A DNA stretch of 64,000 bases from an uncultured Acidobacteriota bacterium (GCA_963836075.1 CAWIIB010000001.1:192001-256000), one strand, 5' to 3'. Positions 22,494 to 57,597 are shown, numbered from the stretch's first letter. Translations and numbers: made by a program. The notes: generated by a model from the sequence alone, not told the origin.

Positions 22494-22563
22494 TCAATCT
22501 CCTCTCCAGAAACCTGACGGTGGACTGCAAGGCTCCGGTGAAATGCAGGTGACCGACTCCTGC

Positions 22564-24024: not shown

Positions 24025-24030
24025 CCAGCT

Positions 24031-24462: not shown

Positions 24463-24480
24463 ATCACGCCTCCCAGGTCA

Positions 24481-25182: not shown

Positions 25183-25203
25183 GCTGGAAAAACCTCGCCC
25201 CGT

Positions 25204-25569
25204 TCAGCGGTTGGCCGCCTTGTGTATTATTTCGATCAATTCTTCGATGTCCACCGGCTTGATCAGGTAGTCAAAAGCGCCGGCCTCGATGCCCCGGGCC
25301 GCGTCTTCGGAGGACCCGTGACCGGTGAGCAGGATGACCTGGATGTCGGCCCGGTCGTGCTTCAACTGCGCGATAACGTCCATCCCGTCCAGACCAGGCA
25401 TTTTCATGTCGAGCACCACCACCTCGAAATCGCCTTCACGAATCCGCTGGATGGCATCGACGCCCCGGGTCACGCCCTCGGCCTGGAAGCCGCGAATCTG
25501 GAGCCGCTCCACCAGGGTCTCGACCAACTCCTCCTCGTCGTCAACCAGCAGCACACGCAGACCGTCCAT
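25204..25569 (-). CDS. Single-domain response regulator
   Basis: VLLVDDE...VVLDMKMPG...LTGH...LIKP. Confidence 0.92.
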   Translation of the reverse strand: MDGLRVLLVDDEEELVETLVERLQIRGFQAEGVTRGVDAIQRIREGDFEVVVLDMKMPGLDGMDVIAQLKHDRADIQVILLTGHGSSEDAARGIEAGAFDYLIKPVDIEELIEIIHKAANR

Positions 25570-25578
25570 GGGAGTCTC

Positions 25579-27302
25579 CTATTCTGTCGTTCCCACCACC
25601 GGCAGCTGGACGGTGAAGGTGGTTCCCTCGCCCTCGACGCTCTGCACGTCGATGCTGCCGCCGATCTTGGCCACCATGCTGAAGGTGATGGAAAGCCCGA
25701 GACCGGTGCCGTAGCCCTTCTTGGTGGTGAAGAATGGCTCGAATATGTGTTTCAGGTTTTCTTCGGATATCCCGGACCCGTTGTCCGCAATGCTGATCCC
25801 GACCAGGCCAGGTTCGGGTTCGTTCATGCTGATCTCGATCTGGCCGCCGTCATCCACGGCGGCAAAGGCGTTGTTGATGATGTTGAGAAAGATCTGCTGC
25901 AGCTGCCGGCGGTCGCTTTCGATGGCCGGCAGGTCGCCGGGAACATTGAAGCTGACCTCGATGTCGCGGTGCAGCGCCGACTTGCCGAGGAAACTCGAGC
26001 ACTTCCTTGAGCAGCAGTTCGAGATTGATCATCTCCGTCCGGGCTTCACGCTGGCGGGCGAAGCCCAGCAGGCGGTGGGTGATGGCGCTGCAGCGCTCCA
26101 CCGACCTGATGATCGAATCGACGATGCCGTGGAATTTCTCGTTCAGCGGGTGATCACTGGACATCTGCACCAGGTCGTTGAGCAGCCCCGCTTTCTCGTT
26201 GATGATGGCCAGCGGGTTGTTGATCTCGTGGGCCACTCCGGCGGCCAGCCGTCCGATGGTGGCCATCTTGTTGGTGTATTCCATGTTGTGAAACACTGTC
26301 GCCCGTTTGACGTCCGCCGCCCTGAGCCGGCTGACCATGTAGTTCGAGCCCCAGAAGATGACCCCCAGGATCAGCAGGGAACTCAGTGCGGTGAAGATGA
26401 TCAACTCGCTGCGCAGGTTGAGCCAGTTGCCCATGATCGCCTCCGGCCGTTTGATCAGCAGGAAGATGAAGGAAGTGCTCTCGATGTAGGCGTAGCCGAG
26501 AATCAGCGGGCGGCCCCGTTCGTCCAACTGCTCGATCACCTCCACCTTCACCGAGTAGGGCGGAACCTCCAGCGGGAAACGGTCCAGCACGTCGCCGTAG
26601 ATCCGTGATGGGCTCTGCAGCACACCCTTGCGGTTGATCAGGAAGGCGTCGCTGGAGGGCCGGTCGCTGAGATGGAGAATCTGGTCGTTGAGCATCTCGG
26701 TGTCAATGGTGGCCCGCAGGATGTGGTAGGTCCGCGGGCCGGTCTCGTGTTTCACCGCGACGACAAAGTGCGGGATTTTGCGAAAGCCCTTGAAGACGTT
26801 GCTGACATAGACGCCACGGAGGGAGACCTCGCGGAACCATTGCTGGTCGGCGTAGTTGATCCCCTCCAGCTCGTACGGGCCCGACGTAGGAGCACTGGTT
26901 GCCGGCGTCGTCGATAAGTCCGAGATCGACAAAACCACCGCCGAAGGAATTCTTGAGATTGCTGAAGATCTCCTCCAGCAGCTGCTGGTCGCACAGCTCG
27001 TCAAAGGACTTGTCGTTAATGATCATTTTCAGCGCCGAGCGCCGCTGGGAGAGGAAGAACTCAAGCGAGCGCTTGGTGTTGGAGGTGAGCAGCGAGATGG
27101 GGTGGATCAGGTCGGCGCGGTAGGCCCGTTTGTACTGGTGGTAGTTGAGGACGGCGAGCACAATCAGCGGGGCGAGAGCGACGATGCAGGTGGAGAGGGC
27201 CACGGCCTTGAACAGACGGCGGTAGCGGTCCCGGGAATGCCCGGCATCCTCGGGCGGCTGTCCGATGGCAGTGGTCTGCTGCTGTGCAGCCGGTTGGATC
27301 AT
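25579..27302 (-). CDS. Membrane sensor histidine kinase with Cache-like periplasmic domain; two apparent +1 frameshifts
   Basis: Joined from ORFs 26703..27356, 25850..27004 and 25579..25857: TM-Cache-TM, AHEINNPL, DNGSG, FFTTK, GTGLGL. Shifts near 26880 and 25992. Confidence 0.85.
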
Positions 27303-27333
27303 GGCTCTCCTCGATCGGCGGGCGTTCCCCTGA

Positions 27334-28579
27334 TCAGGATGAGGAAGCGTCCCCACTTTTCCGATCCCCGGCTTCCAGCACCTTCTGGTTCGCCGCCTTC
27401 ATCGTTGCGGCCAGCACGTCGATGTCGGCCGGTTTCTGCAGGTAGGCGAAGGCACCCAGCTCCAGGGCCAGGTTCTGCTCGGCGTCGGAGCCGTGGCCGG
27501 AGAGGATGATCACCTCCACATCCGGGTGAAGCGTTTTTCACCCGCCGCAGCACTTCGAGGCCGTCCAGGCCGGGCATCTTCAGGTCGAGGACCATCACGC
27601 TTGGCGGGTCGGACTGCAGCATGGTCAAGGCCTGCTCGCCGTCGTAGGCCACGGCGGTATCGAGATTCCTCGTCTGCAGGCGCTCGGACAGGGTGTGCAC
27701 GAATTCCCGCTCGTCGTCCACCAGCAGCACCCGGGAGGGCATGTCGACATCGAGGCGGGGATAGATCTTCGGCTGGTCCTTCATGAAATTGTGCCCCAGA
27801 CGGGTCTCCACGCCGCTGACACCCTCGATGGAGCCGGCCAGGCTGACCAGCTCCTTTTCCAGGCGCTTGAGACGCAGGACATATTTGTTGATTGTTACGG
27901 TCACGCGGCCGCTCTCGCAGCCGACATCGACATCGTGTCCCTTCTCGGCCAGCACTACATTGACCCGTGCAGCCAGGGTGAAGTCCTCCAGCGCCTGATC
28001 CACGCCAGGGGTGCGGAGCAGCGCCGGGTTGCCAAGGTTCTCCAGGATCAGGGCCAGCGCTTCTTGCACAGTGGTCTCGTTCATCGGCAGCAGCATGTCG
28101 TGCAGCGACCGGTCCCAGGGGGGGAGGTGGTGGAACCGTTGGGACCAGCGGGACAGTTCGGTATCCTCCTGCTGCAGTTGCTCCCGGGCATCCCTGGTGG
28201 ACTGCCCGCCCTGCTCGGCCCGGCTGAGCCGATACTGCTTGTTGGCAGCCAGTCCGACCCGCAACACGTGGGTCAGGCTGCGGGGGAGCATCAAAGCGGC
28301 GGGGCCGAGGAGCACCACCTGGTCCCCGAGCATGACCTCGGAGAGGGCCGATCTGAGGTAGGCCGTACCGCGCTCCTGGTTGTGGCCGACGTTGTCGAAG
28401 AAGGTGGGGGTGCCCTGGACCAGCCGTTCCAGTTTCTCGGCGGGGAAGGCGTGTTTCTCCGCGGCGGCCCGGATCAGGGCCGGGGTGTCGGTGAGCCGGC
28501 AGCCCAGCTCCCGGGCGACTTGAGTGGCCACCTCTTCGCCACTGCAGTGGGAGGCGCTGAGAATGCTGATCGCTGACAT
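27334..28579 (-). CDS. Cytidylate-kinase-like + BON-like + receiver domain protein; one +1 frameshift
   Basis: N-terminal CMK-like region (SASHCSGEEVA), C-terminal REC completed in the frame of ORF 27334..27519; shift in a T run near 27535. Confidence 0.8.
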
Positions 28580-28671
28580 GGGCTCACCTCGACTGGAGTC
28601 CGGTCCCCGGTTGAGCCGGGATTATAGCAGATGGGCCGATCCGCTGAAAAGCGGGGCCGCGGCGGAGGCGG

Positions 28672-29250
28672 TCATTTGAAACAGTCCTCGCAGTTCGGGC
28701 CGGCTTCGGCGCAGCAGCGGATGACGTCCGCCACCTCCTCGAACACGTCGGAGAGGCGAAGAATCCCGATCACTTTGCCCTTGCGGGTGACGATGGTGGA
28801 ATAGTCGTGGGTCATCACCAGCATGTGGATCGCCTCGGTGATCGGCGAGTTTTCGTCGATGCCGTCCTCGATGGGGATCATCGCGTCGCGGACCTTGATC
28901 TTGGCCGCGTCCCGGCACATCCGGCTGAGGTCTCCGGAGAAAAGGGAGAGGCCGCTGGAGAGACGCTGGATAAAGTCGGCCTTCAGGCCGGCCCGGGCCA
29001 GGGACTGGACATCCTTCTCGCACAGCAGCTTCGGTTCCAGGCTGCGGATGATGGCCCAGTGGCTGAGCTTGCCCACCACCTGGCCTTGCGGGTCGAGGGC
29101 CAGCACCGCCCGGTGGTGGTGCCGGTTGTTGTCCAGGCCCATCTGAGCGTTGCTCAAGGCGGCCAGCGCTTCGAGGATGGTGGCGTCGCGCGAGACGGTG
29201 GCATACTCGTCGAGCGAGAGCATCAGATCCTTGACCTTTTTTTCTTCCAC
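28672..29250 (-). CDS. CBS domain protein with Cys-rich C-terminal tail
   Basis: KVKDLM...EYATV, KVRDAM CBS pair; tail CCAEAGPNCEDCFK. Confidence 0.85.
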   Translation of the reverse strand: MEEKKVKDLMLSLDEYATVSRDATILEALAALSNAQMGLDNNRHHHRAVLALDPQGQVVGKLSHWAIIRSLEPKLLCEKDVQSLARAGLKADFIQRLSSGLSLFSGDLSRMCRDAAKIKVRDAMIPIEDGIDENSPITEAIHMLVMTHDYSTIVTRKGKVIGILRLSDVFEEVADVIRCCAEAGPNCEDCFK

Positions 29251-29353
29251 GGGACTCTCTCCTTGCTGTTCATCGGTTGGAACACCGGGCCCGTCAGGTC
29301 CGGTGCAAAACAGTATATCAGGAATCGTGGAGAGGCGTGATGCCGCCAGGCAT

Positions 29354-29380
29354 AAAAAAAGCGCCGGGAGATCCCGGCGC
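29354..29380 (-). terminator. Rho-independent terminator after hppA
   Basis: Minus strand GCGCCGGGA-TC-TCCCGGCGC followed by T7. Confidence 0.85.
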
Positions 29381-29408
29381 CTCTCGAATGCTCAGCTCCG
29401 CCCGCTCT

Positions 29409-31625
<2,217 letters not shown>

Positions 31626-31743
31626 GATTTCTTCCTCCTCGGTTCGCCACACGAAAATCCCGTGACCAGCGGGCCTCCGGGACCCCAATGCTGCCAGCAC
31701 TTGCGGCTCGCAGCCTCCCCCTCCTCAGGACCGAATCGCGGGT

Positions 31744-31771
31744 ATCATACACAAGATTCGCCGCTTGACAA
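31744..31771 (-). promoter_or_regulatory. Putative promoter for hppA
   Basis: Minus strand TTGTCA-N16-TATGAT in the hppA/hemA divergent gap. Confidence 0.45.
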
Positions 31772-31993
31772 ATTTTTTGAGGAAGTTCTTTCGCCGCCCC
31801 CTGCCCGGGGGCCCGGCAGCGCGGTTTTGGGCCGAGGCCGGAACCGCGGCAACCCCGGTGGGGGGCGTCACCGATTGCTTGAGCCCTCACGAGGTCCTCT
31901 GATATACTGCCCCGCTCTTCCGTGGATCCCTGCTGGATCATGGAAACAGAGGCACTTCCGGCCCGCCGTCGGGCCGGGCGAGAGGGATCGAAG

Positions 31994-33301
31994 ATGCAGT
32001 TCCTGCTCCTCGGCGTGAACCACAACACCGCACCTCTGGCGCTGCGCGAGTCGTTGGCCCTGGACCAGGGCGAAACGGCCCGCTGCCTGGCCCTGCTCAA
32101 GGACCAGGATTTCTTTGTCGAGGGCTTCATCCTTTCCACCTGCAACCGCAGCGAGTTTTACATCCTCACCGGGGACGCCGCAGCGGCTGAGCAGGGTCTC
32201 TGCCGGCTGGTCAGGGAAGTGAAGGGTGTGGACCACCTGGCCGACAGCCGGATCAGATACCTGAAAAAGGACCGCGACGCGGTGGAGCACCTCTTCCGGG
32301 TCACCGCGGGTCTCGACTCCATGATCCTGGGGGAGCCGCAGATCATCGGGCAGGTCAAGGAGGCCTACTCGCGGGCCTGCAAGGCCAGCAGCACCGGCGC
32401 CTTTGTCAATAAACTGTGCCACCTGGCCTTCCGGGTGGCCAAGCGCTCCCGGTCCGAGACGCACATCGGCGAGGGCGCGGTCTCGGTGGGTTACGCCGCG
32501 GTGATGGAGGTCCGGGAACGGCTGGGCGGCCTGAAGGGGCGCACGGTGCTGGTGGTGGGGGCCGGGAACCACGGCGAGCTGGTGGCCGGCCACCTGGAGA
32601 GCCATGGTCCGGTCCGGCTGCTGGTGGCCAGCCGTACCGAAGCCCGGGCCCGGGACCTGGCCTCGCGCCTGAAGGGTGAAGCGGTGCCGGTGGAGCAGTT
32701 GTCCGCGGCACTGGCCGAGGCGGATGCGGTGATCTGCTGCACCGCCTCGCTGCGTCAGGTGATCACCGCCGCTGAACTGGACCCGGCCCTGGAACAGCGT
32801 GACGGCGCTCCGCTGCTGCTGGTGGACATCGCCGTGCCGCGGGACATCGACCCCCACCTGGGCAAATATCCCGCGCTGACCCTGCTGGATATCGACAGCC
32901 TGACCAGTGTGGTGGACGAGAACCGAGAGCGTCGCCGGGAAGAAATACCCCTGGTGGAAGCCCTGGTGCTTCATGAATTGGACAAGTTCTTCGCCTGGTA
33001 CCGCTCGCTGCAGACCGTGCCGGTGATCCAGGCGCTGCTGGCCAAGATGGAGGGGATCCGCCGGGAGGAGATGGACAGCTTCGGCGGCACCCTCGATCCC
33101 GCTCAGCGGGACCGGGTGGAACGGTTCAGCCGCCGGCTGGTCAGCCGGATGATCCACGAACCGCTGAGCCGGATCAAGGTCTGTGACCGCAGCACCCGCA
33201 TCGGCATGCTCAAGCTGGACACGGTGCTCGACATCTTTGCCCTGGCCGAAGAGGACCGTCTGGACCTGGAGCGCGAAGACCGGCAGGAGGTGAGCCGATG
33301 A
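31994..33301 (+). CDS. hemA: Glutamyl-tRNA reductase
   Basis: GVNHNTAP, STCNRSE, GEPQIIGQ, DIAVPRDI. Confidence 0.96.
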   Translation: MQFLLLGVNHNTAPLALRESLALDQGETARCLALLKDQDFFVEGFILSTCNRSEFYILTGDAAAAEQGLCRLVREVKGVDHLADSRIRYLKKDRDAVEHLFRVTAGLDSMILGEPQIIGQVKEAYSRACKASSTGAFVNKLCHLAFRVAKRSRSETHIGEGAVSVGYAAVMEVRERLGGLKGRTVLVVGAGNHGELVAGHLESHGPVRLLVASRTEARARDLASRLKGEAVPVEQLSAALAEADAVICCTASLRQVITAAELDPALEQRDGAPLLLVDIAVPRDIDPHLGKYPALTLLDIDSLTSVVDENRERRREEIPLVEALVLHELDKFFAWYRSLQTVPVIQALLAKMEGIRREEMDSFGGTLDPAQRDRVERFSRRLVSRMIHEPLSRIKVCDRSTRIGMLKLDTVLDIFALAEEDRLDLEREDRQEVSR

Positions 33302-34848
33302 CCGGGAGGGCCAGGGGAGAGGTGGTGCTGGTGGGTGGCGGACCTGGCGACCCCGGCCTGATCACCCGGAGGGGACTCGAATGCCTGCGCCGGGCCGAGG
33401 TGGTGATCTACGACCACCTGGTGGCCGAGGACCTGTTGCGCGAAGCCCCGGAGGGGGCCGAATTGATCTTTGCCGGCAAGCAGGCCGGTGGGCCCTCCAT
33501 GGACCAGGAGCAGATCAATCGCCTGCTGCTGGAGCACGCCGGGCGGGGGGCCTACGTGGTGCGCCTGAAGGGCGGCGATCCCTTCGTCTTCGGCAGGGGA
33601 GGGGAGGAGGCCCTGGCGCTCCATGAGGCCGGCATCGCCTTCTCGGTGGTTCCCGGTGTCACCTCCGCCGTGGCCGCGGCGGCCTATGCCGGAATCCCGG
33701 TGACCCATCGCGGCCTGTCCACCTCCTTCGAAGTGGTCACCGGCCACCCGGCAAAGGGCGCCGTGGCCATGGTGGACTGGGTGCGGGTGGCCAACGGGGC
33801 CGACACCCTGGCGGTGTACATGGGTGTGGGCCGGATGGCCGAGATCACCCGGATGCTGGTTGACGGCGGGCGTCCGGCGGAGATTCCGGCCGCTGTGGTG
33901 CAGTCCGGGACCACCCCGGCCCAGGTGACGGTCAGCGGCACTCTCGGGGACATCGCCCAACGGGCGAAGGATGCCGGTATCCGGCCTCCGGCGGTGCTGC
34001 TGGTGGGACTGGTCACCGGCCTGCACCAGCAGCTTGCCTGGTACGAGAAGCTGCCGCTCTTTGGCCGGCGGCTGGCCGTGCTGCGCCCGGAGGCCCAGGC
34101 GGACGAACTGGCCGGCCCGCTCACCGCCCTCGGGGCCCAGGTGGTCCGCTTTCCGGTGATGACGCTGGCCGGTCCGGAGAACAGTGAGCCGCTGTCCGGG
34201 GCCATCGCCGATCTGCAGCAGTTCCACTGGCTGCTCTTCAGCAGCCCCAACGGCGTGCGGTCGTTTTTCCGCTGTCTCTGCGAGCAGGGGAAGGACGCCC
34301 GGGACCTGGGGGGGCTGCGCGTCGGCGTGGTCGGTCCGGGAACAGCGGACGAACTGCGGCGCCACGGCCTGCGGGCCGACCTGGTTCCCACCCGTTCCGT
34401 GGCCGAACAGTTTGCCGAGGAACTTGTCAACAGCGGTGAGATGGCCGGTCGGCGGGTCCTGCTGCCCCAGGCCCGGGACGCCCGGCCGGTGCTGGCGGCA
34501 CGACTGTCCCGGGCCGGCGCCGACGTGCATGCGGTGGAGGCCTACCGCATGGTCCCCACGAAAACCGACGGCCAGTGGCTGCTGGAAGAGATCGAGCAGA
34601 AAAAGGTTCACGGACTGCTTTTCACCAGTTCCTCCACCGTGACCTACCTGCTCAGCTCCCTGGGCCTCGAAGATTTCAGCGGCATCCCCGCCAGCTGTCC
34701 GCTGATCAGTATCGGACCGATAACCACCGAGACCATCACCAGAGCCGGCGGGACGCCGGCCTTTGAAGCCGACCCGCACACCATGTCCGGGTTGGTGGAT
34801 GGGGCCGCCAATTTCCTGGGCCGACCCACAAACAGAAAAAAACAGTAA
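33298..34848 (+). CDS. cobA: Uroporphyrinogen-III C-methyltransferase / uroporphyrinogen-III synthase fusion (CobA-HemD)
   Basis: LVGGGPGDPGLIT, RLKGGDPFVFGRGGEE; HemD half with FSSPNGV, FTSSSTV, IGPIT. Confidence 0.95.
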   Translation: MTGRARGEVVLVGGGPGDPGLITRRGLECLRRAEVVIYDHLVAEDLLREAPEGAELIFAGKQAGGPSMDQEQINRLLLEHAGRGAYVVRLKGGDPFVFGRGGEEALALHEAGIAFSVVPGVTSAVAAAAYAGIPVTHRGLSTSFEVVTGHPAKGAVAMVDWVRVANGADTLAVYMGVGRMAEITRMLVDGGRPAEIPAAVVQSGTTPAQVTVSGTLGDIAQRAKDAGIRPPAVLLVGLVTGLHQQLAWYEKLPLFGRRLAVLRPEAQADELAGPLTALGAQVVRFPVMTLAGPENSEPLSGAIADLQQFHWLLFSSPNGVRSFFRCLCEQGKDARDLGGLRVGVVGPGTADELRRHGLRADLVPTRSVAEQFAEELVNSGEMAGRRVLLPQARDARPVLAARLSRAGADVHAVEAYRMVPTKTDGQWLLEEIEQKKVHGLLFTSSSTVTYLLSSLGLEDFSGIPASCPLISIGPITTETITRAGGTPAFEADPHTMSGLVDGAANFLGRPTNRKKQ

Positions 34849-34860
34849 GGAGTAGGAGCC

Positions 34861-35835
34861 ATGGCTTTTCCTGATATTCGTATGAGAAGGATGAGAAGAA
34901 CCGAACGGCTGCGCGGGTTGGCCTGCGAGACCGTTCTGCACCCGGCTGACTTCATCTACCCCCTTTTCGTCTGTCCCGGAAAAGGCGTGAAGAACGAGAT
35001 CTCCTCCATGCCCGGGTGCTACCAGATGTCGGCGGACATGATCGCCAGGGAGTGCGAGGAGATCGACGAGCTGGGTATCTCCGGGGTGATTCTTTTTGGT
35101 ATCCCCAGCAAGAAGGACGCGGTGGGCTCGGAGGGCTACGCCGCCGATGGCGTGGTGCCCACGGCCATCCGGCAGATCCGCGACCGGGTTCCCGGCCTGC
35201 TGATCGTGGCCGATGTCTGCATGTGCGAGTACACCGACCACGGGCACTGCGGGATCATCAAGGACGGGGGAGTGGACAACGACTCCACCCTGGACCTGCT
35301 GGCCCGGGCTTCGCTCTGCTATGCCGAGGCCGGGGCCGACGTGGTGGCCCCTTCGGACATGATGGACGGCCGGGTGGCGCGTATCCGGAAGGTGCTGGAC
35401 GAATCGGGGAAAGAGGAGACGGTGATCCTCTCCTACGCCGTGAAATACGCATCGGCTTTCTACGGCCCGTTCCGCGAGGCCGCCGAATCGGCGCCGCAGT
35501 TCGGCGACCGCCGGGCCTACCAGATGGACCCGCCAAACGTGCGGGAAGCCCTGCGCGAGGCGGCGCTGGATGTTGATGAGGGGGCGGACATGATTATGGT
35601 CAAGCCGGCGCTGCCCTATCTCGACGTGCTGCAGCGGGTGAAGCAGGAATCTCCGGTTCCGGTGGGCGCCTACAATGTCTCCGGAGAGTTCTCCATGATC
35701 CATGCCGCGGCGGAGCGGGGCTGGCTCGACCTGAAGAAGACCTCCCAGGAGAGCCTGATTTCGATCAAGCGGGCCGGTGCTGACTTCATTCTGACCTATT
35801 TTGCCAAGGACGTGGCGCGGGACCTGCGATCCTAG
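34861..35835 (+). CDS. hemB: Porphobilinogen synthase
   Basis: [28 protein letters not shown]. Confidence 0.98.
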
Positions 35836-35864
35836 TGCACGCAGGGACAACAGGGGGTGGACCG

Positions 35865-37172
35865 ATGTCCGGATTGAACCTCGAAAAGAGCCGGCGGCTC
35901 TTCGAACAGAGCGGAAAACGGATCCCCGGCGGGGTCGAATTCTCCGGTTCGCGCTTTCCGTTCGGTGGGCGGTACGCCGCCATTCATCAGCCGGGGCAGC
36001 GGTGCCCGGATCTGGGACGTGGACGGCAACGAGTATGTGGACCATGTCTGTTCCTGGGGGCCGCTGCTCTTTGGTCACGCCCACCCGGCAATCCTCGAGG
36101 CGGTGAACCGCGCCGCCGCTCGGGGCACGACCTTCGGCGCCCCCACCGAGGCGCGAGTTCAGGCTGGCCGAGGCGATCCACCGCTTTGTTCCTTCGATGG
36201 AAATGGTGCGTCTGGTCAGTTCGGGCACCGAAGCCACCATGAGCGCGGTGCGGCTGGCCCGCGGGTTCACCGGCCGCGAGGCGGTGATCAAGTTCAACGG
36301 CTGTTACCACGGGCATTCGGACGGCTTTCTGGTGCAGGCCGGATCCGGGGCCACCACCCTGGGCAGTCCGGACAGCCCGGGGGTGATACCGGGAACGGTG
36401 GCTGCCACGCTCCAGGTTCCGTTCAACGACCTGGAGGCGGTGGAGGAGGTGGCGCACGAGCACAGCGACCGGCTGGCCGCGGTGATCGTGGAACCGGTGG
36501 CCGGGAATATGGGAGTGATCCCCCCGAGCCCCGGCTTTCTCGCCGGTTTGCGGAAGCTGTGCGACCGCCACGGTGCCCTGCTGATCTTTGACGAGGTGAT
36601 CACCGGGTTCCGCCTGGCCCGGGGCGGGGCCCAGGAACTGTTCGGCATCCGGCCCGACCTGACCACCCTGGGCAAGATCCTCGGCGGCGGCCTGCCCCTG
36701 GGAGCCTTTGGCGGCCGTGCGGAGGTGATGGATGCCCTGGCCCCCACCGGGCCGGTGTACCAGGCCGGGACCCTGTCCGGCAACCCGGTGGCCGTGGCTG
36801 CCGGTCTGGCCGCCCTGGGTTTGATCGAGGACGATCCGGACCTCTACCACCGCCTGGAGCGCACCACCGGCCGCGCTGGTGGAGGAACTGCAGCGGCTGG
36901 CCGCCGAAAAGGGTGTTCCCATCCGTTACCAGAGGGTGGGATCGATGTTTACCCATTTTTTCACCGGCGAGGAGCGGGTGGCCAATTACGAGGACGCCAC
37001 CGCCTGCGACACCGGCGCCTTCCGGCGCTACTTCGGCGCCATGCTGGAACGGGGTGTCTACCTCGCCCCGTCGGCCTTCGAAGCCGCCTTTGTCTCGGCG
37101 GTCCACCTGGACAGCGACCTGGAGCAGACCGTCGAAGCTCACCGGGCCGTCCTGGACCTGCTGCCGGACTGA
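35865..37172 (+). CDS. hemL: Glutamate-1-semialdehyde 2,1-aminomutase; three apparent +1 frameshifts
   Basis: [55 protein letters not shown] spread over consecutive frames; shifts near 35937, 36153 and 36870. Confidence 0.92.
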
Positions 37173-37225
37173 ACCGCGACCGGCGCCGGCAGGCGCCCGC
37201 CGCACGCATTGGTGGAGGAACTGAC

Positions 37226-37711
37226 ATGGATCTCCAGGCCCGGGACCTGATGGTCAGCGAATTCGATACTGTCTCTCCGGACGCGCCGCTGGCCGATGCG
37301 GTGCGATTGATGCGCAACCCGGTGAAGGGCGGCGCCGTGCGGCGGGTGTTCGGACTGATGGTGGTGGACGAAAATGACGCGCTGGTGGGCATGATCTCCA
37401 TGTTTGACGTGCTGTTCCACTTCGACATGATGTTTCACCTGGAGGAGACTCCGGACGGGGGGCCGGCCGGGGAGGCTCAATTGGAAGAGGCATTCCACCG
37501 CGCCTGCGAAAAGGCCGGACCGATGAAGGTGGAGGACCTGATGACCAGGACCCTGGTCAAGGTTGACGAACAGGCCCACATCACTGATATCATCGACATC
37601 CTGATCAAGACCCGGCACCGCCGCCTGCCGGTCTGTCGGGGAAACACCATTTGCGGTGTGATTTACATCTCCGACGTCTTTTACGAAATCTACAAGAACC
37701 TGCTTGGCTGA
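37226..37711 (+). CDS. CBS domain protein
   Basis: Own GGAGG RBS; ARDLM...VFGLMVVD...GMISMFD...KVEDLM CBS pair. Confidence 0.85.
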
Positions 37712-37829: not shown

Positions 37830-37891
37830 TTGACAGCGGCGGAGGCGATGTGGCATAAACTGATGCATTCGATGTTGCGTTTTGTGTTGGA
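37830..37891 (+). promoter_or_regulatory. sigma70 promoter of dsrTMKJOP overlapped by four 12-bp-phased TGTTGCA-like boxes
   Basis: TTGACA at 37830, TGg-CATAAA at 37854 (N18); boxes ATGTGGCA 37848, CTGATGCA 37860, ATGTTGCG 37872, GTGTTGGA 37884. Confidence 0.6.
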
Positions 37892-37968
37892 TCGGATGAA
37901 TGGAATGTCGGCCGCCATCTTGAGGATTGAATGAACGTCTCCGTGGCAGGGGGAGGACGCAACAGACA

Positions 37969-43660: not shown

Positions 43661-44599
43661 ATGGGTATTGTTCTGATCGTCACCTGCCTGTCGCTGGTTG
43701 TCTTCGTCGCCAGCGTGCTGACCCGGTTCATCCGGCTCTCCCGGTTGCCGGTTCACCTGCGCTGGGAAGTCTACCCCGTGCCGCACGAGAAGGGGAAAGG
43801 CAAATACGGCGGTTCATATCTCGAGGAGTACGAGTGGTGGACCAAGCCGCGGCAGACGTCGAAGCTGGCCGAATTGAAGGTGATGATCCCGGAGATCATC
43901 CTGCTGGCCGGTGTCTGGGAACACAACAGGAAGCACTGGTTCCGCACCTTCCCCTTCCACTTCGGCCTCTACCTCCTGGCCGGGCTGATCGCCCTCCTCG
44001 CCGTTGGCGGCGTGGCCACGGCGGCCGGCGTCCAGGTGACGGCGGACGGGGGCCTGTTCGGTGCGCTGGTCTACTACCTGACCATGGTGCTGGGCTATGC
44101 CGGCATGGGCCTGGCCCTCTATCGGGGCGTTGGCCCTGCTGCTGCGGCGGACCTTCAACGCCGACTACCGCGAATACACCACCGGCGCCGACTTCTTCAA
44201 CCTCGCTCTTCTTCATTGCCGCCCTGGTGGTGGCCCTGGTCACCCACTTCACGGTGGACCGGCACTTCGCCAACCTGCGGGGCTTTTTCCAGGGGCTGCT
44301 GACCTTCGACGGTTCGGCGATCCCGCAGCTGTCAGCGCTGCAAAGCCTGGAGATCGTACTGGCCTCGCTGCTGGTGGCCTATATCCCGCTGACCCACATG
44401 TCGCACTTCTTCACCAAGTGGTTCACGTACCACGACGTGCGCTGGAGCGACGAACCGAACCTCGAGGGCAGCGGGTTCGACGAGAAGATTGCCAAGCAAC
44501 TTGAAGTCCACGGTGAGTTGGTCCGCCCCGCACATCCGCGGCGACGGCAAGAAGAAAAACTGGATCGACGTGGTCACGTCTTCGGGGCGGGAGGAATAG
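43661..44599 (+). CDS. Second DsrM-like (NarI-family) cytochrome b, DsrM2; three apparent +1 frameshifts
   Basis: HLRWEVYPVPHE...YGGSYLEE, FPFHFGLY, YIPLTHMSHF, WSAPHI; shifts near 44120, 44204 and 44501. Confidence 0.85.
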
Positions 44600-44606
44600 C
44601 AAGTGC

Positions 44607-46225
44607 ATGACAAAAAAACGCGTAAAATTCAGAGATATTTCGAAACCAACGGCCAGGCTGTCCGAGGAGCTGCGCAAGGAGGACTTCATGCCGCTCCCCG
44701 CGCCGCTGGACGATGCCGGAGGCTCTGCCGGACTTCCCGCCGTTGAAAGAGACAGTGGAAGAAAAGTACGAGTGCTCACTGGACGACACGGTGGCCCTCA
44801 ATCTGCCAAAGCCCGAGACCAAGGAAGAGGAGGACGAGCTGGTCGCCAAGTTCCTCTCCGGGCTGCAGAAGCTCTTCACCAAGGAGAACAACTGGACCTT
44901 TCTCCAGCCGCTGCTGCTCTCCATGGACCACTGCGCCTCCTGCCACACCTGCTCCGACTCCTGCCACATCTACGAGGGCAGCGGCAAGAACCCGATCTAC
45001 CGGCCGGCCTACCGCTCGGAGGTTTTCCGCCGGCTCTACAAGAACCATGTCAAGGGTAACGGCGGCGGGATTCTGGCCGCCTGGCGCAACGGCGAGATCG
45101 AGCTCAACTGGACCACCGTGGCCCGGCTGGCCGAGCTCTCCTACCGCTGCAACCTCTGCCGGCGCTGCGCCCAGACCTGTCCCATCGGCGTGGACAACGG
45201 CCTGATCGGCCACGAGATCCGCAAGCTGTTCAGCCAGGAGATGGGCATCGCGGCCAAGGAAATCCACGAGACCGGCTCGGTGCTGCAGCTCAAGGTGGGC
45301 TCCTCCACCGGGATGAACGACCTGGTGGTCAAGGACAACATGGAGTTCATCGACGAGGACGTCACCGAGAAGACCGGGATCACCGTGGAGACGCCCTGGG
45401 ACAAGGAAGGGGCCGACATCCTGCTGATCCACAACGCCGGCGAGATCATGGCCTGGCCGCTGAACCCCGGGGCCTTCGGCGTGATCTTCGAGTCGGCCGG
45501 GCTGAGCTGGACCATGTCCAGCGAGATCGCCGGTTACGACAGCATCAACTACGGCCTCTGGTACGACGATGCCCAGTTCGCCCGGGTGGCGATCAAGCAC
45601 GCCGAGGCGGCGAAGAAGCTGGGCGTGAAGAAGATCGTCCTCGGCGAGTGCGGGCACGCCCACAAGGCACTGACCGTGATCGCCGACCGGGTGCTCACCG
45701 GCGACCTGAACATCCCCCGGGAAAGCTGCCTGGTGACCCTGGAGGAGATCGTCATGTCCGGCCGGCTGAAGGTCGACCCGGAGCGCAACGACTTCCCGGT
45801 GACCCTGCACGACCCCTGCAACCTGGTGCGACTGATGGGCATCGTCGAGCCGCAGCGCCGCATCCTGCGCAAGATCGCCCCGCGGTTCCGCGAGATGACG
45901 CCCCACGGCGTCGACAACTACTGCTGCGGCGGCGGCAGCGGGTTCGCCATCATGAGCGGCAACAACTTCGCCGACTGGCGGATCCAGGTCTCCGGGCCGC
46001 AAGAAGCTCGAGCAGGTGCTCAACGCCTTCGAGGGCGAGCTGGACCCGTCGATCAAGAAGTATGTCTGCGCCCCCTGCTCCAACTGCAAGGGCCAGCTGC
46101 GGGACATCTTCGCCTACTACGATCTGTGGGAGAAGCACTCCATCATGTATGACGGGCTGGTGGAACTGATCGTCAACTGCATGGTGGACGCCAACCCGGG
46201 CTTCATCGAGTGGGAGCAGCACTGA
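44607..46225 (+). CDS. Second DsrK-like (HdrD-family) Fe-S protein, DsrK2; two apparent +1 frameshifts
   Basis: CASCHTCSDSC, CNLCRRCAQTCP, GECGHA, HDPCN, CCGGGSG, APCSNC; shifts near 44712 and 45997. Confidence 0.88.
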
Positions 46226-46437: not shown

Positions 46438-46500
46438 TGCAACAATATATGCAACATTTTCCCGAAACCCCTTGACAACCAAAATCGCTCTTGGTAGAGT
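46438..46500 (+). promoter_or_regulatory. sigma70 promoter of aprBA with an upstream TGCAACA-N5-TGCAACA direct repeat
   Basis: TGCAACA at 46438 and 46450; TTGACA 46472 -N17- TAGAGT 46495 with extended TG. Confidence 0.75.
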
Positions 46501-49143: not shown

Positions 49144-49182
49144 CCCCCCGGGCGCGCCCTGCGTGCCCGGGGGGTTCTCTTT
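49144..49182 (+). terminator. Rho-independent terminator after aprA
   Basis: CCCCCCGGGCGCGC-CCT-GCGTGCCCGGGGGG followed by TTCTCTTT. Confidence 0.7.
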
Positions 49183-49334: not shown

Positions 49335-49628
49335 ATGACAGAACAGACACCCCAGACCTGCCCCCACTGCCAATCGGCCCTGTTGCCGTTTCGCACGCCG
49401 CCCAACACTTCGTGGGGCGGCAACATCCACCTGGCCTGCTTCAACGACGAATGTCCCTACTTCGTCCGCGGCTGGAAGTGGATGGCCGAAAAATACGAAG
49501 CCCACGCCTCGTACCGTTTCATGGTCGACCCGGTGAACGGGACCACCGGACCCCTGCCGGTCTGGTCGGCCCAGGCGCTGCGCGACTTGATTCTGCAAGA
49601 GGGCGAAGAGTGGGATTCCGAGGAGTGA
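49335..49628 (+). CDS. Small zinc-ribbon-like hypothetical protein
   Basis: CPHC...CFNDEC motif; codon usage typical of the window; abuts the next gene. Confidence 0.75.
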   Translation: MTEQTPQTCPHCQSALLPFRTPPNTSWGGNIHLACFNDECPYFVRGWKWMAEKYEAHASYRFMVDPVNGTTGPLPVWSAQALRDLILQEGEEWDSEE

Positions 49629-49632
49629 CTGG

Positions 49633-50455
49633 ATGAACGAGGCCAGCGATTTCAAGAAAAAGATCATGTCGGATGCGCCCCGCCTGAACTACGGCGACCG
49701 TTTCCGCTTTTCCTGCAACCCCGGCGTGCCCTGCTTCAATGCCTGCTGCGCCGACATCAACATCGTCTTGACCCCCTACGACATCCTGCGGCTGAAAAAC
49801 CGCCTGGGCATCAGCTCCAGCGAATTCCTCGACAGATACGCCGTGGTGCCCTTCAACAAGGAAGTCAAGCAGCCGGTGCCGCTGCTCAAGATGTCGGACC
49901 ACGAGGACAAGCGCTGCCAGTTCGTTGGCCAACAGGGCTGCACGGTTTACGAGGACCGGCCCTGGGCCTGCCGGATGTACCCCCTGGGGCTGGCCGCACC
50001 GCGTGACGAAGCCGAGCAGGGCAAGCGGTTCTACTTCCTGCTGGAAGAGTCACACTGCAAGGGCTTCGAGGAAGACAACGAATTCTCGGTGGCCGGCTGG
50101 ATCGAAGACCAGGGGATCCGCGAGTACCGATGAGGCGGGGGAACTGTTCAAGGACATTTCGCTGCACCCCTATTTTGAAAAAGGCGACCTCTCGCCGGCC
50201 AAGATGGACATGTTCTTCAACGCCTCCTATGACCTGGACCGCTTCCGCCGGTTTGTCTTCGGATCGAGTTTTCTCGAAAAGTTCGACGTGGAGCAGGAGA
50301 CGGTGGACAAGATCAGGACCGATGACGTGGCGATGATGAAATTCAGCTTCAACTTCCTGCGCTACGCGCTGTTTTACGAACCGACGATGAAGTTGAAACC
50401 GGAGTTCGAAGAGATGAAGAAACGGGAGAAGGAGTTCTTCGAGGAGAAGGACTGA
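49633..50455 (+). CDS. YkgJ-family (CxxCxxCC) cysteine cluster protein; one +1 frameshift
   Basis: FSCNPGVPCFNACC, CQF...CTVYEDRPWACRMYP, HCKG; continues in the frame of 49925..50455 after an extra C near 50128. Confidence 0.85.
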
Positions 50456-54030: not shown

Positions 54031-55146
54031 ATGAGTACCACAGCAGATCTCCAGTTCGCCAACGACGTGATCCGCGCCGGCGGGTCGGAGGTGATGAAAT
54101 GCTACCAGTGCGCCACCTGCTCGGCGGTGTGCGAACTGGCGCCGGTGGACAAGCCGTTTCCGCGCAAGGAGATGATCTGGGCCCAGTGGGGGCTGCAGGA
54201 GCGGCTGATCGGCGATCCCGACGTCTGGCTCTGCCACCAGTGCAACGACTGCACCGTGCACTGCCCGCGAGGCGCCAAGCCGGCGGACGTGATGTCGGCG
54301 GTACGGCAGCTGAGCATCGAGCATTACGCGGTACCCCGGGCCCTGGCCCGGATGGTCAACAAACCCGGCATGCTGCCGCTGCTGCTGGCCATCCCGTCGC
54401 TGGTCATCGGGCTTATATTGATTCTGCTGTACGCCGGCGGGGTGATCGAGCTGGGCGGCCACGAGGTGGAATATGCCAAGATGTTTCCCCACGCCTGGCT
54501 CAACGGCAGCTTCACCATCTTCTTCTTTGTCGCCTGCGGGGCGCTGTTCGTCGGTTTGCGCCGCTTCTGGAACGACATGGACCGGCTGGCCCCGGCAACC
54601 GGGGCGGATCGCAAACCGCTGATCGGCTCGCTGATCGGGCTGCTGCTGGAGTTCATTGCGCACAGCCGTTTCGGCAAGTGCACCGACGACCACTATCGCA
54701 AACTGTCCCACCTGGGGGTGGTTTTCGGTTTCGCCGGCCTGCTGCTGGTCACCGCCGTGGCCATCGTTTACATCCTGCTGCACCTGCCCTATCCCATGGC
54801 CCAGACCAACCCGTTCAAGATCCTCGGCAACCTCAGTGCCCTGGCCATGCTCAGCGGCCTGCTGGTGCTGATCTTCAAGCGTTTCGAAAAACGTGACACC
54901 GCCCGGGGCAGCACCTACTTTGACTGGTCCTTCCTCGTGCTGCTGCTGCTGGTGGTGGTCACAGGTCTGCTCACCGAGGCGGCCCGGCTGGTGGGCGTGG
55001 CTGCCGTGGCCTATCCGGTCTACTATGTGCACCTGGTTATCATCTGGTCACTCTTCGTCTATGCGCCCTATTCCAAAATGGCCCACCTGGCCTACCGGCT
55101 CACCGCGCTGCTGCACGCCCGGGTCAATGGCAGGGAGGAGGTCTGA
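54031..55146 (+). CDS. qmoC: QmoC (HdrC-like Fe-S + cytochrome b)
   Basis: CYQCATCSAVC, FPRKEMIWAQWG, CHQCNDCTVHCP, TM helices with His, PYSKMAH. Confidence 0.96.
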   Translation: MSTTADLQFANDVIRAGGSEVMKCYQCATCSAVCELAPVDKPFPRKEMIWAQWGLQERLIGDPDVWLCHQCNDCTVHCPRGAKPADVMSAVRQLSIEHYAVPRALARMVNKPGMLPLLLAIPSLVIGLILILLYAGGVIELGGHEVEYAKMFPHAWLNGSFTIFFFVACGALFVGLRRFWNDMDRLAPATGADRKPLIGSLIGLLLEFIAHSRFGKCTDDHYRKLSHLGVVFGFAGLLLVTAVAIVYILLHLPYPMAQTNPFKILGNLSALAMLSGLLVLIFKRFEKRDTARGSTYFDWSFLVLLLLVVVTGLLTEAARLVGVAAVAYPVYYVHLVIIWSLFVYAPYSKMAHLAYRLTALLHARVNGREEV

Positions 55147-55161: not shown

Positions 55162-56916
55162 ATGAAGAACAGCATCCAAGTGGAACAGCTCCGCAGCCTG
55201 GAGAAAAAACTGCGCGATTCCTTTCCTTCCCGCTCCCTCTGGGACGGCCTGGCCGACGTGATCCCCGACGCCATGTTCGTCATGGACGAGGACCGCCGGA
55301 TCATTTACTGGAGCGGAAGGGCGGAGGAGATGACCGGGTTCACCCCCGGGGACGTGCTGGGCAAGAACTGCTGTGCCGACGAGCGGTGCAACAACTGCCC
55401 CAAGGGTTGCCCGTTGTTCCAGGAGGGTTCGATGAACAACCTGGAAGGCATTTTTGCCACCAAGGACGGGCGGGTGATCCCGGTGCTGAAGAACGGTCTG
55501 CTGTTCCGCAACCGCCGGGGGCGGATCCTCGGCGCGGTGGAAACCATCCGCGACATCTCCATCGAGGAGCAGACCAGCCAGAGTCTGGCCCGGGAGCAGG
55601 TGCGTTTCGATTCGCAGAAACGTCTGTTGGAGTCGGTGATCGGCGCGGTGTCCGAAGGGGCGGTGGCCATCGACCGTGACCTGCAGATCATCAGCTTCTC
55701 CCGTCAGGCCTCGGAGATCAGCGGGGTAGCGGTGGAGGATGCCATCGGCGCCAAGTGCTGCGACATCCTGCGCAACCCGCTCTGCGAGGAGCAGTGCCCG
55801 ATGCAGCACCTGGCCGATCACCGGACCAGGCAGCCCGGGCTGCCCACCCGGATCAGCGGCGCCGGCGGCGACAGCATTCCGGTCACCGAGTCGGTGGTGC
55901 CGATCTTCATGGAGGGCAAGCTCAGCGGCGGGATCATCATCCTGCGCGACATGCGGGCCGAGGAAAAGCTGGCCCTGGAACAGATGCGCAGCGGGCAGCT
56001 GGACGAGATGATCGGCCGTTCCAGCGCGATGCAGAACATCTTCTATCTCATCGACCGGCTGGCCGAAATCGACACTCCGGTCTGTCTGGTGGGGGAGGCC
56101 GGAACCGGGCGGGATATCGTCGCCCGGACCCTGCACCGCAAGAGTGTTCGGTCCGAGGGCCAGCTGCGCAGCATCGACTGCGGCCTGCTTCCCGAGCACC
56201 TGCTGGAGAGCGAGTTTTTCGGGCATCTCAAGGGCGCCCTGCCCGGGGCGGTGCGCGACAAGGTCGGGCAGCTGGAACTGGCCCACCGGGGTACGCTGTA
56301 CGTGGCCCAGGTGGAAAAGCTGCCCCGGCCGCTGCAGAAGAAGCTCGTGCGGTTTCTCGAGACCGGGGAATTCACCAAGGTGGGCGGCAAGAACAGTATC
56401 GAAAGCGACGTGCGGATGATCTGCGCCTTCAACGAGGATTTCGAATCCCTGGTGCAAGAGGGACGCATCGGCAAGGACCTCTATGACGCCGTGTGCGGAA
56501 TCGTGATCAACATCCCGCCGCTGCGCGACCGCCGACTGGACATCGAACTGCTGGTGGTCCACTTTCTCAAGAGCCAGGACGTCTCGGGGATCGGTGAAAC
56601 CCAGGCGAAGAAGATATCCGCCGGCGCCCTGCGGGCCCTGGTCCGCTACCCCTGGCCCGGCAACGTTCGAGAACTGCGTAACGTCCTCGACTACGCGGTA
56701 TCGGTCTGCTCGGGAACGACGATCAACCTCAACGATTTGCCACCGGAGATCATCAGCTCGCTGGTTCCCAGCGACGATTCCGGTGAGGACGATGAACGGA
56801 CCCGGATCCTCCGCGCCCTGGAGGAAACCCACTGGCGCCGTTCGGAAGCGGCCCAGGCCCTGGGAATGGACCGTTCCACCCTCTGGAGAAAGATGAAATC
56901 CTTCGGTCTCTGCTGA
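55162..56916 (+). CDS. PAS-PAS-AAA+-Fis HTH regulator of the NtrC family with degenerate catalytic motifs
   Basis: Two PAS domains; ESEFFGH, YPWPGNVRELRN, AAQALGMDRSTLWRKM; but GEAGTGRD, GALPGA and LYVAQV replace the canonical motifs. Confidence 0.9.
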   Translation: MKNSIQVEQLRSLEKKLRDSFPSRSLWDGLADVIPDAMFVMDEDRRIIYWSGRAEEMTGFTPGDVLGKNCCADERCNNCPKGCPLFQEGSMNNLEGIFATKDGRVIPVLKNGLLFRNRRGRILGAVETIRDISIEEQTSQSLAREQVRFDSQKRLLESVIGAVSEGAVAIDRDLQIISFSRQASEISGVAVEDAIGAKCCDILRNPLCEEQCPMQHLADHRTRQPGLPTRISGAGGDSIPVTESVVPIFMEGKLSGGIIILRDMRAEEKLALEQMRSGQLDEMIGRSSAMQNIFYLIDRLAEIDTPVCLVGEAGTGRDIVARTLHRKSVRSEGQLRSIDCGLLPEHLLESEFFGHLKGALPGAVRDKVGQLELAHRGTLYVAQVEKLPRPLQKKLVRFLETGEFTKVGGKNSIESDVRMICAFNEDFESLVQEGRIGKDLYDAVCGIVINIPPLRDRRLDIELLVVHFLKSQDVSGIGETQAKKISAGALRALVRYPWPGNVRELRNVLDYAVSVCSGTTINLNDLPPEIISSLVPSDDSGEDDERTRILRALEETHWRRSEAAQALGMDRSTLWRKMKSFGLC

Positions 56917-57079
56917 AACCGGGACCGTTTCGCCCGCTGCCGGGGGACAATACCCTGCCTCTGGCCCGATTCCGGGCCACAATCAGGTCACAAGCAACGC
57001 GATGTTGCACTTCCCTGACCCGGGCATGACTTTTTGATATAAAGCTGTAAAGTGTTACAAGTAATATTATTAAACCTCA

Positions 57080-57178
57080 TGCCACATTGCTGCCTTTTGT
57101 GATAACAACATATTTTGCAACAGAATATTCACCGCGTTGGTCGAAATGCTTGACAGGTGGTCACGCTTGGAGTATAAA
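57080..57178 (+). promoter_or_regulatory. sigma70 promoter of dsrC-dsrABD with phased TGCAACA-like boxes
   Basis: TTGACA 57150 -N17- TATAAA 57173; TGCCACA 57080, AACAACA 57104, TGCAACA 57116. Confidence 0.8.
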
Positions 57179-57279
57179 CGGTCTCCATAGAGTTGGATTT
57201 TCATGTACCGTGTTTTGAATCGGGCATTATTTCAATCTTGGATTTGGCGCCTCGGGCGCTCATCAAAAGGAGTTTATAG

Positions 57280-57597
57280 ATGCCAGTTTTTGAATTCGAT
57301 GGACAGGAGATCGAGGTCGACGAGGACGGGTTCATCCAGAATCCCGATGTCTGGAACGACGACATCGCCGCGGCGCTGGCCAAGACCGAGGGTGTCGACG
57401 AACTGACCGAAGACCACTGGAAGCTGGTCCGCTACCTCCGGGACTACTACCTGCAGTTCGGTATCGCCCCCATGATCCGCAAGCTCTGCAAGGCCACCGG
57501 CTTCTCGCTGAAGACCGTTTACGAACTGTTCCCCAGCGGCCCGGCAAAGGGTGCCTGCAAGGTGGCTGGTCTGCCCAAGCCCACCGGCTGTGTGTAA
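57280..57597 (+). CDS. dsrC: DsrC sulfur carrier with both C-terminal cysteines
   Basis: VDEDGF, LTEDHW, LFPSGPAKGACKVAGLPKPTGCV (C-X10-C). Confidence 0.98.
   Translation: MPVFEFDGQEIEVDEDGFIQNPDVWNDDIAAALAKTEGVDELTEDHWKLVRYLRDYYLQFGIAPMIRKLCKATGFSLKTVYELFPSGPAKGACKVAGLPKPTGCV

Follow-up and report, generated by a model that had tools for sequence, protein, structure and literature searches.

A lineage-restricted pseudo-ATPase encoded between qmoC and dsrC: a candidate redox regulator of sulfate-reduction operons in an uncultured Acidobacteriota bacterium

The 64,000-nucleotide stretch of an uncultured Acidobacteriota bacterium analyzed here (GCA_963836075.1, CAWIIB010000001.1:192001-256000; referred to as the window) contains, between qmoC and dsrC, a gene for a 584-aa protein that combines two PAS domains, an AAA+ domain, and a Fis-type helix-turn-helix (HTH). 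Judging from its sequence and from those of its relatives, the protein is a real, conserved, and lineage-restricted pseudo-ATPase regulator, in which all residues for ATP hydrolysis, cross-ring coupling, and sigma54 grip have been lost. Redox switching of sulfate-reduction genes is poorly explained, and at this locus a candidate sensor-regulator can be paired with exactly predicted operators of three operons. By analogy, the regulator probably contains a sensor of the OrpR type; the Apr/Dsr operons constitute a well-defined candidate regulon, and the protein is a good candidate for a switch tying sulfate-respiration genes to the redox state. That it acts as an atypical, ATPase-dead, Fe-S-sensing sigma70 regulator of these operons has, in our estimate, about the same chance of being right as of being wrong, and the same holds for the full mechanism proposed below.

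The open reading frame (ORF) is free of gaps as compared to two orthologous genes, and all motifs quoted in the initial annotation are present. Alignment to NtrC1, ZraR, and NifA assigns GEAGTGRD (aa 311-318) to Walker A, GALPGA (358-363) to loop 1, LYVAQVE (379-385) to Walker B, and WPGNVREL (498-505) to sensor II (coordinates in Table 1). The Pfam models Sigma54_activat (PF00158) and AAA+ lid (PF25601) matched with 163 and 77 bits, respectively; PAS was also found, and the Fis HTH model PF02954 was found on orthologs. None of the 24 full-length family models of enhancer-binding proteins (EBPs) shown reached its cut-off (TyrR, 184 bits versus 576; NtrX, 190 versus 600), and neither an ACT nor a receiver domain was among the families shown for the protein. 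Of the features of a canonical sigma54 EBP, the clade-6 AAA+ fold, the lid, and the Fis-type HTH are present, whereas the GAFTGA motif and the catalytic residues are absent.

A protein search returned ten relatives at 54-94% identity, followed by a drop to ≤48%, and a profile search added the 285-aa fragment P0125; two further fragments from a search for short proteins were left out of the counts. The clade defined in this way comprises 12 near-full proteins that are 54-100% identical. Three proteins longer than 1300 aa were omitted from the 269 fetched, and in the alignment of the remaining 266 the 12 clade members were compared with the 254 other relatives. Residue 317 of Walker A is Arg in 12/12 clade members and Lys in none, as compared to Lys in 249 and Arg in one of the 254 others. 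The FT/YT of loop 1 (0/12 versus 244/254) and the DE of Walker B (0/12 versus 245/254) are likewise missing throughout the clade. These three substitutions had been pointed out in the initial annotation for the single protein, and the comparison with homologs suggested there identified no close ortholog with canonical motifs. The losses extend further, to the switch Asn (0/12 versus 218/254), the T/S of sensor I (2/12 versus 248/254), R-finger 1 (2/12 versus 253/254), and R-finger 2 (0/12 versus 252/254), while the Arg of sensor II is present in 10/12 clade members and 250/254 others. The roles of the AAA+ motifs were taken from the literature (PMC7175178).

In a tree of the AAA+-HTH region, based on 51 chosen of the 266 rows and rooted at the midpoint only, the 12 clade rows lie on one side of a branch with a support of 100/100 and a length of 0.77, indicating that the clade has one origin; the tree does not resolve its sister group. 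Three degenerate EBPs with partly lost Walker motifs (P0197, P0234, P0208) were placed outside the clade, and P0242, also outside, has the Walker A Arg as well but retains DE. Loss of the motor, as read from such alignments, thus recurs within the EBP family. The protein is almost certainly ATPase-dead and independent of sigma54, as the initial annotation had proposed. Apart from the motif losses, this agrees with the TTGACA-type promoters of the locus and with the lack of -24/-12 sites, the consensus of which gave two matches in the window versus 2.27 expected, none of them at the three promoters discussed below.

Sequencing error and local decay are excluded as causes of the degenerate motifs, because the losses occur in 12/12 independent proteins, there is no indel relative to the two orthologs, and the ratio of nonsynonymous to synonymous substitution rates (dN/dS; three genomes, pairwise Nei-Gojobori) is below 0.09. 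In the window, two nearby loci are broken up over different frames, which would suit a decaying pseudogene or an assembly error, but for the regulator gene we regard such an explanation as practically negligible. Its dN/dS of 0.056-0.082 is comparable to the values of dsrA (0.046-0.106), dsrB (0.070-0.078), and dsrL (0.052-0.073), and lower than those of dsrN and qmoC. Within the clade, mean identity reaches 92% in the HTH, 83% in the lid, and 82% over aa 281-378, but 58% over aa 379-450. The segment of aa 379-450, which spans Walker B to the R-fingers, is 80% identical among 17 hand-picked intact relatives; its relaxation was not reached in any of 20,000 column permutations, a test which ignores the linkage of adjacent columns and which was applied to a region picked after the data had been seen. 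The regional identities indicate that the catalytic and ring-forming face drifts, whereas the P-loop side, the lid, and the HTH are held. By these sequence measures, strong purifying selection acts on the front AAA+ half and the lid, on the HTH, and on the cysteines of the PAS domains.

The predicted structure keeps the full fold (mean pLDDT, the predicted local distance difference test, 86.7; pTM, the predicted template modeling score, 0.53). Its AAA+ domain superimposes on FlrC with a Z score of 29.8 and a root-mean-square deviation of 1.5 Å over 247 residues, Z scores for FlrC/FleQ being 29.7-29.8; NtrX was the top Foldseek row but by Z score is tied with intact EBPs. Both fold searches were filled by matches of the AAA+ domain, and the model says little on activity because its alignment consisted mostly of intact relatives. 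A PAS-only model built without an alignment was unusable (pLDDT 33.7). The ESM Atlas contained generic PAS-sigma54 clusters only, and the best rows of a plasmid search were <29% identical.

The strong conservation of the front AAA+ half and the lid, together with the existence of intact two-PAS relatives, might also point to a partner role, in which the protein as a dead subunit or anti-activator joins an intact EBP and tunes distant sigma54 promoters, its location in the dsr region being secondary. However, the R-finger face that would make the ring contacts is precisely the drifting part, the local promoters lack a sigma54 site, and synteny is kept, so that we consider such a role quite improbable.

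Both cysteine clusters quoted in the initial annotation, NCCADERCNNCPKGCP and KCCDILRNPLCEEQCP, are present in the protein. The PAS domain of OrpR from Desulfovibrio vulgaris Hildenborough uses C52, C61, and C65 to bind a redox-labile [4Fe-4S] cluster, which was demonstrated by UV-visible and electron paramagnetic resonance spectra, and has a conserved D/E at position 54 (PMC8359166). As compared by published residue numbering and spacing, not by sequence alignment, both PAS domains of the regulator have the C-x8-C-x3-C spacing of OrpR, and PAS2 also matches the acidic residue (11/11). PAS1 contains the triad plus a fourth Cys, which makes it a candidate four-Cys Fe-S site; here, the acidic +2 residue occurs only in P0011, and C71 is specific to the clade. 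By analogy to OrpR, at least one of the two PAS domains very probably holds an Fe-S cluster. Among the possible signals, sensing of thiol, sulfide, or O2 by these cysteines cannot be told apart.

The cysteine clusters were considered as a novelty of this protein, but this was rejected, since the C-x8-C-x3-C triad occurs in 94 of the 254 relatives outside the clade, 27 of them with the four-Cys form. The 26 listed relatives with a four-Cys pattern near the N terminus all have DE and G[AS]FTGA, and 25 of them have the Walker A Lys. As the triad is common in intact relatives, the sensor appears to be inherited, and the novelty lies in the loss of the motor. The wide distribution of the motif among relatives of unknown function would also fit a role of the PAS cysteines in zinc binding, in thiol or persulfide switching, or in protein structure, the signal then being other than Fe-S oxidation. 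PAS1 with its four to five Cys and a CxxC spacing could suit Zn. On the other hand, the exact OrpR spacing and the acidic fourth position of PAS2, together with the spectroscopic demonstration of the OrpR cluster (PMC8359166), make this reading improbable.

The phased boxes which the initial annotation had named at three coordinate ranges proved to be real. They accompany the promoters of dsrC, aprB, and dsrT, all three of which have a perfect TTGACA (Table 1). At aprB as well as at dsrC, half-sites precede the -35 element by 34 and 22 bp, a coincidence of about 1 in 12 by phase alone; the third dsrC half-site is degenerate (TTCACCG). If aprB and dsrC are used to define the half-site, no chain of three or four with a period of 8-24 exists in the window except that of the dsrT region, and none of 5000 shuffles of this region reached three in phase. 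Upstream of dsrC, the inverted pair is marked by 18 invariant columns around AGCAACGCGATGTTGCA, kept at the same distance in 3/3 genomes, a run reached in 0/100,000 column shuffles. The second conserved block reads CAACA-N5-TGCAACAG-N4-TTCACCG in the three genomes. Both footprints are maintained in sequence and spacing, while the A+T-rich stretch of 94 bp that separates them is of constant length but only 33-50% identical. An origin of the footprints in structured RNA was rejected, as there were no Rfam hits in 89,961 bases and the folding of five segments did not exceed that of shuffles (z, -0.05 to -1.81). No Rex/HcpR-like palindrome was found in the window, and reading revealed no antisense promoter that would place the dsrT array upstream of a -35 element.

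Some further observations concern the leaders of these genes. The 5' leader of dsrC is strongly conserved (window 57180-57285; L001, 5444-5549; L002, 2863-2968, L001 and L002 being the loci of the two other genomes) and in each of the three genomes carries a small hairpin ahead of its ribosome-binding site, with no Rfam match and no significant folding. An extra half-site, CGCAACA, is located on the plus strand at 37958-37964, just past the likely ribosome-binding site of dsrT, a gene that probably begins with the ATG at 37969. As RNA, this half-site could base-pair with one box of the array, but the fold is no better than those of shuffles.

That the regulator binds these boxes is suggested by the proximity of the inverted pair, 77 bp from its gene, by the 17-bp, OrpR-like length of this pair, by the HTH being the best conserved part of the protein, and by the lack of another strong transcription-factor match among the 57 window ORFs scanned. 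Binding to the palindrome before dsrC is probable; for the 12-bp arrays we would not lean either way. The inverted pair fits a Fis-type dimer, and the direct arrays fit less well. Hydrophobic residues before the first helix dimerize Fis-type domains. They are absent from the HTH of the clade (0/12 versus 74/139 of the others matched by the pattern), and this absence may free the HTH from a fixed dimer.

Several points weigh against assigning the three operons to the regulator. Its DNA binding, metal content, and activity are predictions from sequence and analogy. Taken by itself, the palindrome pattern is weak, with six matches in the window (≤3 mismatches) versus 1.76 expected and 2/100 shuffles; two coding sites score equal to the inverted pair, which is confined to a single promoter. 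Coding DNA accounts for one of five direct-repeat matches and for two of the eight best tandem-pair profile scores. The aprB and dsrT boxes are known from one genome only, and boxes are absent before sat in L001 (136-bp gap) and before the qmoABC block that carries the regulator gene itself. The half-site resembles a predicted Desulfovibrio Zur site. Fis-type dimers do not usually target direct repeats phased at 12 bp. The precedent of Nla28 involves tandem 8-bp repeats of variable spacing (PMC9765219). Finally, the cluster state of OrpR leaves DNA binding unchanged (PMC8359166), so that the output proposed here would be without precedent.

Some of these points also suit an explanation with two regulators, in which the pseudo-EBP binds the inverted pair only and the arrays belong to another factor, such as a Fur-family metal or peroxide repressor, DsrD, which has a winged-helix fold, the Ogr/Delta-like protein at 49335, or a factor encoded outside the window, which covers little of its contig (at least 2.3 Mb). 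The geometry of the two site types differs; the predicted Desulfovibrio Zur site, ATGCAAC-N3-GTTGCAT, has the same half-site, and the Ogr_Delta match of 28.3 bits exceeds its cut-off of 26.3. This 97-aa zinc-finger protein, encoded between aprA and qmoA (49335-49628), is a possible second regulator. Conversely, one half-site is common to both site types, the distance between them is fixed in 3/3 genomes, the core spacing of the Zur site is 2 bp shorter, and no other transcription-factor family was among the families shown for 57 ORFs of the window, apart from the weak Ogr/Delta match. Taken together, we regard two regulators as unlikely, but as deserving attention.

In the mechanism which we prefer, an ancestral sigma54 activator with two Cys-PAS domains would have lost its motor once, and the motor-less protein would have been kept as a DNA-binding redox switch at the sigma70 promoters of sulfate-reduction operons. 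Each PAS would hold an oxidation-labile Fe-S cluster, as in OrpR, and the HTH would read TGCAACA in the inverted pair far upstream of dsrC and in the 12-bp arrays at dsrC, aprB, and dsrT, the latter gene being named from its position. Since the ATPase output is dead, the cluster state would have to act via oligomer shape, DNA occupancy, or contact with RNA polymerase. With rising redox potential, the protein would fill the arrays and cover -10/+1 at the dsrT promoter and, at aprB and dsrC, the upstream-element region. Repression is modestly favored over activation, because of the perfect -35 elements and the position of the array over -10/+1 of dsrT; PexR is an example of an EBP that also represses a promoter of the housekeeping sigma factor (PMC12754779).

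A smaller share of the credence we give to this mechanism falls to the opposite sign, the cluster-loaded form then serving as a sigma70 activator of class I at the aprB and dsrC promoters, with the array at dsrT limiting or fine-tuning output. The fixed upstream offsets, identical at two -35 elements, favor class I activation; OrpR is active when reduced (PMC8359166), and VpsR and most atypical EBPs activate sigma70 promoters (PMC6158489). All three promoters, however, already have a perfect TTGACA, and an array over -10/+1 of dsrT would oppose the co-expression of one pathway.

In a far-reaching extension, the clade would control the entire Apr/Dsr pathway of dsrD/dsrL-type sulfate reducers as its dedicated master switch, in a mode undescribed for EBPs. 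The dead AAA+ domain would serve as a spacer and ligand sensor, with subunits arranged head-to-tail on the 12-bp boxes and looping to the distal palindrome; two Fe-S clusters of different ligation would read two redox thresholds; and the Walker A Arg would bind a nucleotide or a sulfate-bearing ligand such as adenosine 5'-phosphosulfate without hydrolyzing it. The fixation of R317 in 12/12 members while Walker B drifts, and the missing hydrophobic residues of the HTH, would be compatible with it, but that all of these assumptions hold jointly seems rather improbable.

Table 1. Regulator gene, its domains and motifs, flanking genes, and promoter elements (positions in the window)
Feature	Position	Strand	Basis or remark
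Pseudo-enhancer-binding protein gene, 584 aa	55162..56916	+	ORF read, domain models, alignments, orthologs
PAS1, aa 26-135	55237..55566	+	Pfam PAS
Candidate PAS1 Cys cluster, C70-x5-C76-x2-C79-x3-C83 plus C71	55369-55410	+	all five Cys in 9/9 covering members
PAS2, aa 145-266	55594..55959	+	Cys/Asp pattern in 11/11 covering clade members
PAS2 C199-x-D201-x6-C208-x3-C212	55756-55797	+	11/11 covering members
Degenerate AAA+ domain and lid	56002..56766	+	alignment; fold intact in model
Walker A, GExGTGR	56092-56115	+	within AAA+ domain
Loop 1 (GAFTGA position)	56233-56250	+	within AAA+ domain
Walker B	56296-56316	+	within AAA+ domain
Lost R-fingers	56467-56493	+	within AAA+ domain
Sensor II	56653-56679	+	within AAA+ domain/lid
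Fis-type three-helix HTH	56785..56913	+	92% mean pairwise clade identity; helices 542-555, 560-567, 571-581 in model
qmoC, upstream neighbor	54031..55146	+	NCBIfam qmoC, 427 bits (cut-off 300); position equal in L001 and L002
dsrC, first gene of dsrC-A-B-D-N-L	57280..57597	+	family models; loci L001/L002
17-bp inverted pair, AGCAACG-N3-TGTTGCA	56993..57009	.	centre 149 bp before dsrC -35; 3/3 genomes
Three 12-bp-phased half-sites before dsrC	57104..57134	+	46, 34, and 22 bp before -35; 3/3 genomes
Sigma70-like dsrC promoter, TTGACA-17-TATAAA	57150..57178	+	read from sequence; conserved; missed by promoter scanner, which needs final T
Two perfect TGCAACA half-sites before aprB	46438..46456	+	34 and 22 bp before -35
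Sigma70-like aprB promoter, TTGACA-17-TAGAGT with TG	46472..46500	+	promoter scan
Four 12-bp-phased half-sites, dsrT-MKJOP promoter	37849..37891	-	over -10/start region; ≤1 mismatch each
Sigma70-like dsrT promoter, TTGACA, weak -10 (GCATAA or CATAAA)	37830..37859	+	read from sequence; not called by scanner

The regulator gene starts 15 bp after the stop codon of qmoC and ends 363 bp before dsrC. Upstream of it are aprBA, qmoAB, and dsrT-MKJOP, and dsrC-A-B-D-N-L follows; the labels dsrT, dsrD, dsrN, dsrL, qmoA, and qmoB are our assumption from position and domain content rather than from a model of the same name. A genome scan gave 33 pattern matches and two confirmed loci, L001 and L002, the latter labeled Acidobacteriota. 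The order qmoC-gene-dsrC-A-B-D-N-L-CBS is kept in both retrieved loci, that is, in three genomes including the window. A fourth syntenic case is hinted at by the clade member P0008 and P0356, a 93%-identical DsrB, for both of which the longest contig is given as 13,993 bp. The hosts seen are one Acidobacteriota metagenome-assembled genome (MAG) and one Schekmanbacteria MAG; the latter, Ca. Schekmanbacteria RBG_13_48_7, is the source of P0011 and is listed among genomes with dsrAB (10.1101/2023.06.27.546762). Among the 120 rows shown, the DsrB of the window has three clusters at ≥84% identity including its own, followed by a gap to 76%; with only two other clusters above 76%, the DsrB lineage appears to be narrow.

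Several other features of these loci were noted. In L001, the dsr cluster ends with the CBS gene and then sat (12570-13772). In the window, a second, DsrMK-like pair of a membrane subunit and an Fe-S/CCG protein (43666-46223) is split over several frames, due to either indel errors or decay; its larger gene is 28% identical to DsrK. A CxxCxxCC gene before qmoA (49633-50455) is split between two frames. A terminator-like hairpin after aprA (49157-49172) suggests that the qmoABC-regulator block may have its own promoter; neither boxes nor a TTGACA were seen at this presumed promoter. The region 17931-37711 contains genes for the S-adenosylmethionine cycle, siroheme/heme synthesis, an H+-pyrophosphatase, and a sodium:sulfate symporter with stand-alone receiver proteins. 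No phased boxes occur at these support genes, and phased pairs are absent before hemA, metK, the H+-pyrophosphatase gene, the second DsrMK-like pair, and the qmo block.

In Desulfovibrio alaskensis, dsrABD, apsAB, and dsrMKJOP are not induced upon loss of rex (PMC4045070). A sulfate-reducing acidobacterium was reported to raise nearly all genes of the pathway under anoxia, in a paper whose main text does not contain the word "regulator" (PMC10564751). The text and supplement rows of a paper on marine Acidobacteriota dsr genes that could be inspected do not mention a gene of the present type (PMC8528874), and no account of the clade or of a TGCAACA regulon was found in a literature search, outside of which most subscription papers lay. 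If the preferred mechanism is true, the regulator would clearly exemplify how loss of the AAA+ motor can rewire an Fe-S sensor from sigma54 to sigma70. It would not be a general answer for sulfate reducers, since only 12 near-full members and two fragments of the clade were found and the DsrB lineage to which they are tied is narrow.

Among characterized proteins, OrpR resembles the regulator in its PAS, AAA+, and HTH domains, in the Cys triad with the acidic +2 residue, in its occurrence in an anaerobe, and in a 17-bp imperfect palindrome near its own gene (PMC8359166). However, OrpR is a sigma54 activator with a single PAS, its control is limited to the orp operons, and it binds GGGCGYRTTTTGCGCCC (PMC8359166), whereas the regulator described here has two PAS domains and no motor, and its neighbors are qmoC and dsrC instead of orp genes. 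Intact two-PAS sigma54 activators (P0123, P0124, P0126, and others) share its architecture, a length of about 580 aa, and the four-Cys PAS1 at 32-38% identity, and likely represent the ancestral state. Rex and HcpR of Desulfovibrio also exert redox-linked control of sat, apr, qmo, or dsr at sigma70 promoters, but differ in fold, signal (NADH in the case of Rex), and sites (PMC4045070, PMC545781, PMC11451228).

The initial annotation had compared the protein to TyrR; VpsR and NtrX are closer analogues. VpsR of Vibrio cholerae likewise lacks GAFTGA, has an altered Walker B and no detected ATPase activity, and acts at sigma70 promoters from proximal and distal sites, but it has a receiver domain, responds to cyclic di-GMP, lacks an Fe-S PAS, and controls biofilm genes (PMC6158489). 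As the score to VpsR (121 bits) is lower than that to intact EBPs (195 bits), motor loss in the present clade appears to be independent. NtrX of Brucella, TyrR, HupR, PhhR, HsfA, and the NtrC proteins of Caulobacter and Rhodobacter combine the EBP fold with the lack of a working GAFTGA and activate or repress at sigma70 promoters (PMC6158489, 10.1101/2023.06.06.543975). Both Walker motifs are still required in Caulobacter NtrC, as is ATP binding in Rhodobacter NtrC (10.1101/2023.06.06.543975), whereas in the clade Walker B, the switch Asn, sensor I, and the R-fingers were lost together and the Walker A Arg became fixed; motor loss, as far as the motifs tell, is more complete here than in Caulobacter NtrC. 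The protein is thus not a canonical EBP, probably not OrpR, with which spacing and neighbors were compared, and not an ortholog of TyrR, NtrX, or VpsR; by its architecture and degenerate GAFTGA, it fits the loose class of atypical EBPs (PMC6158489).

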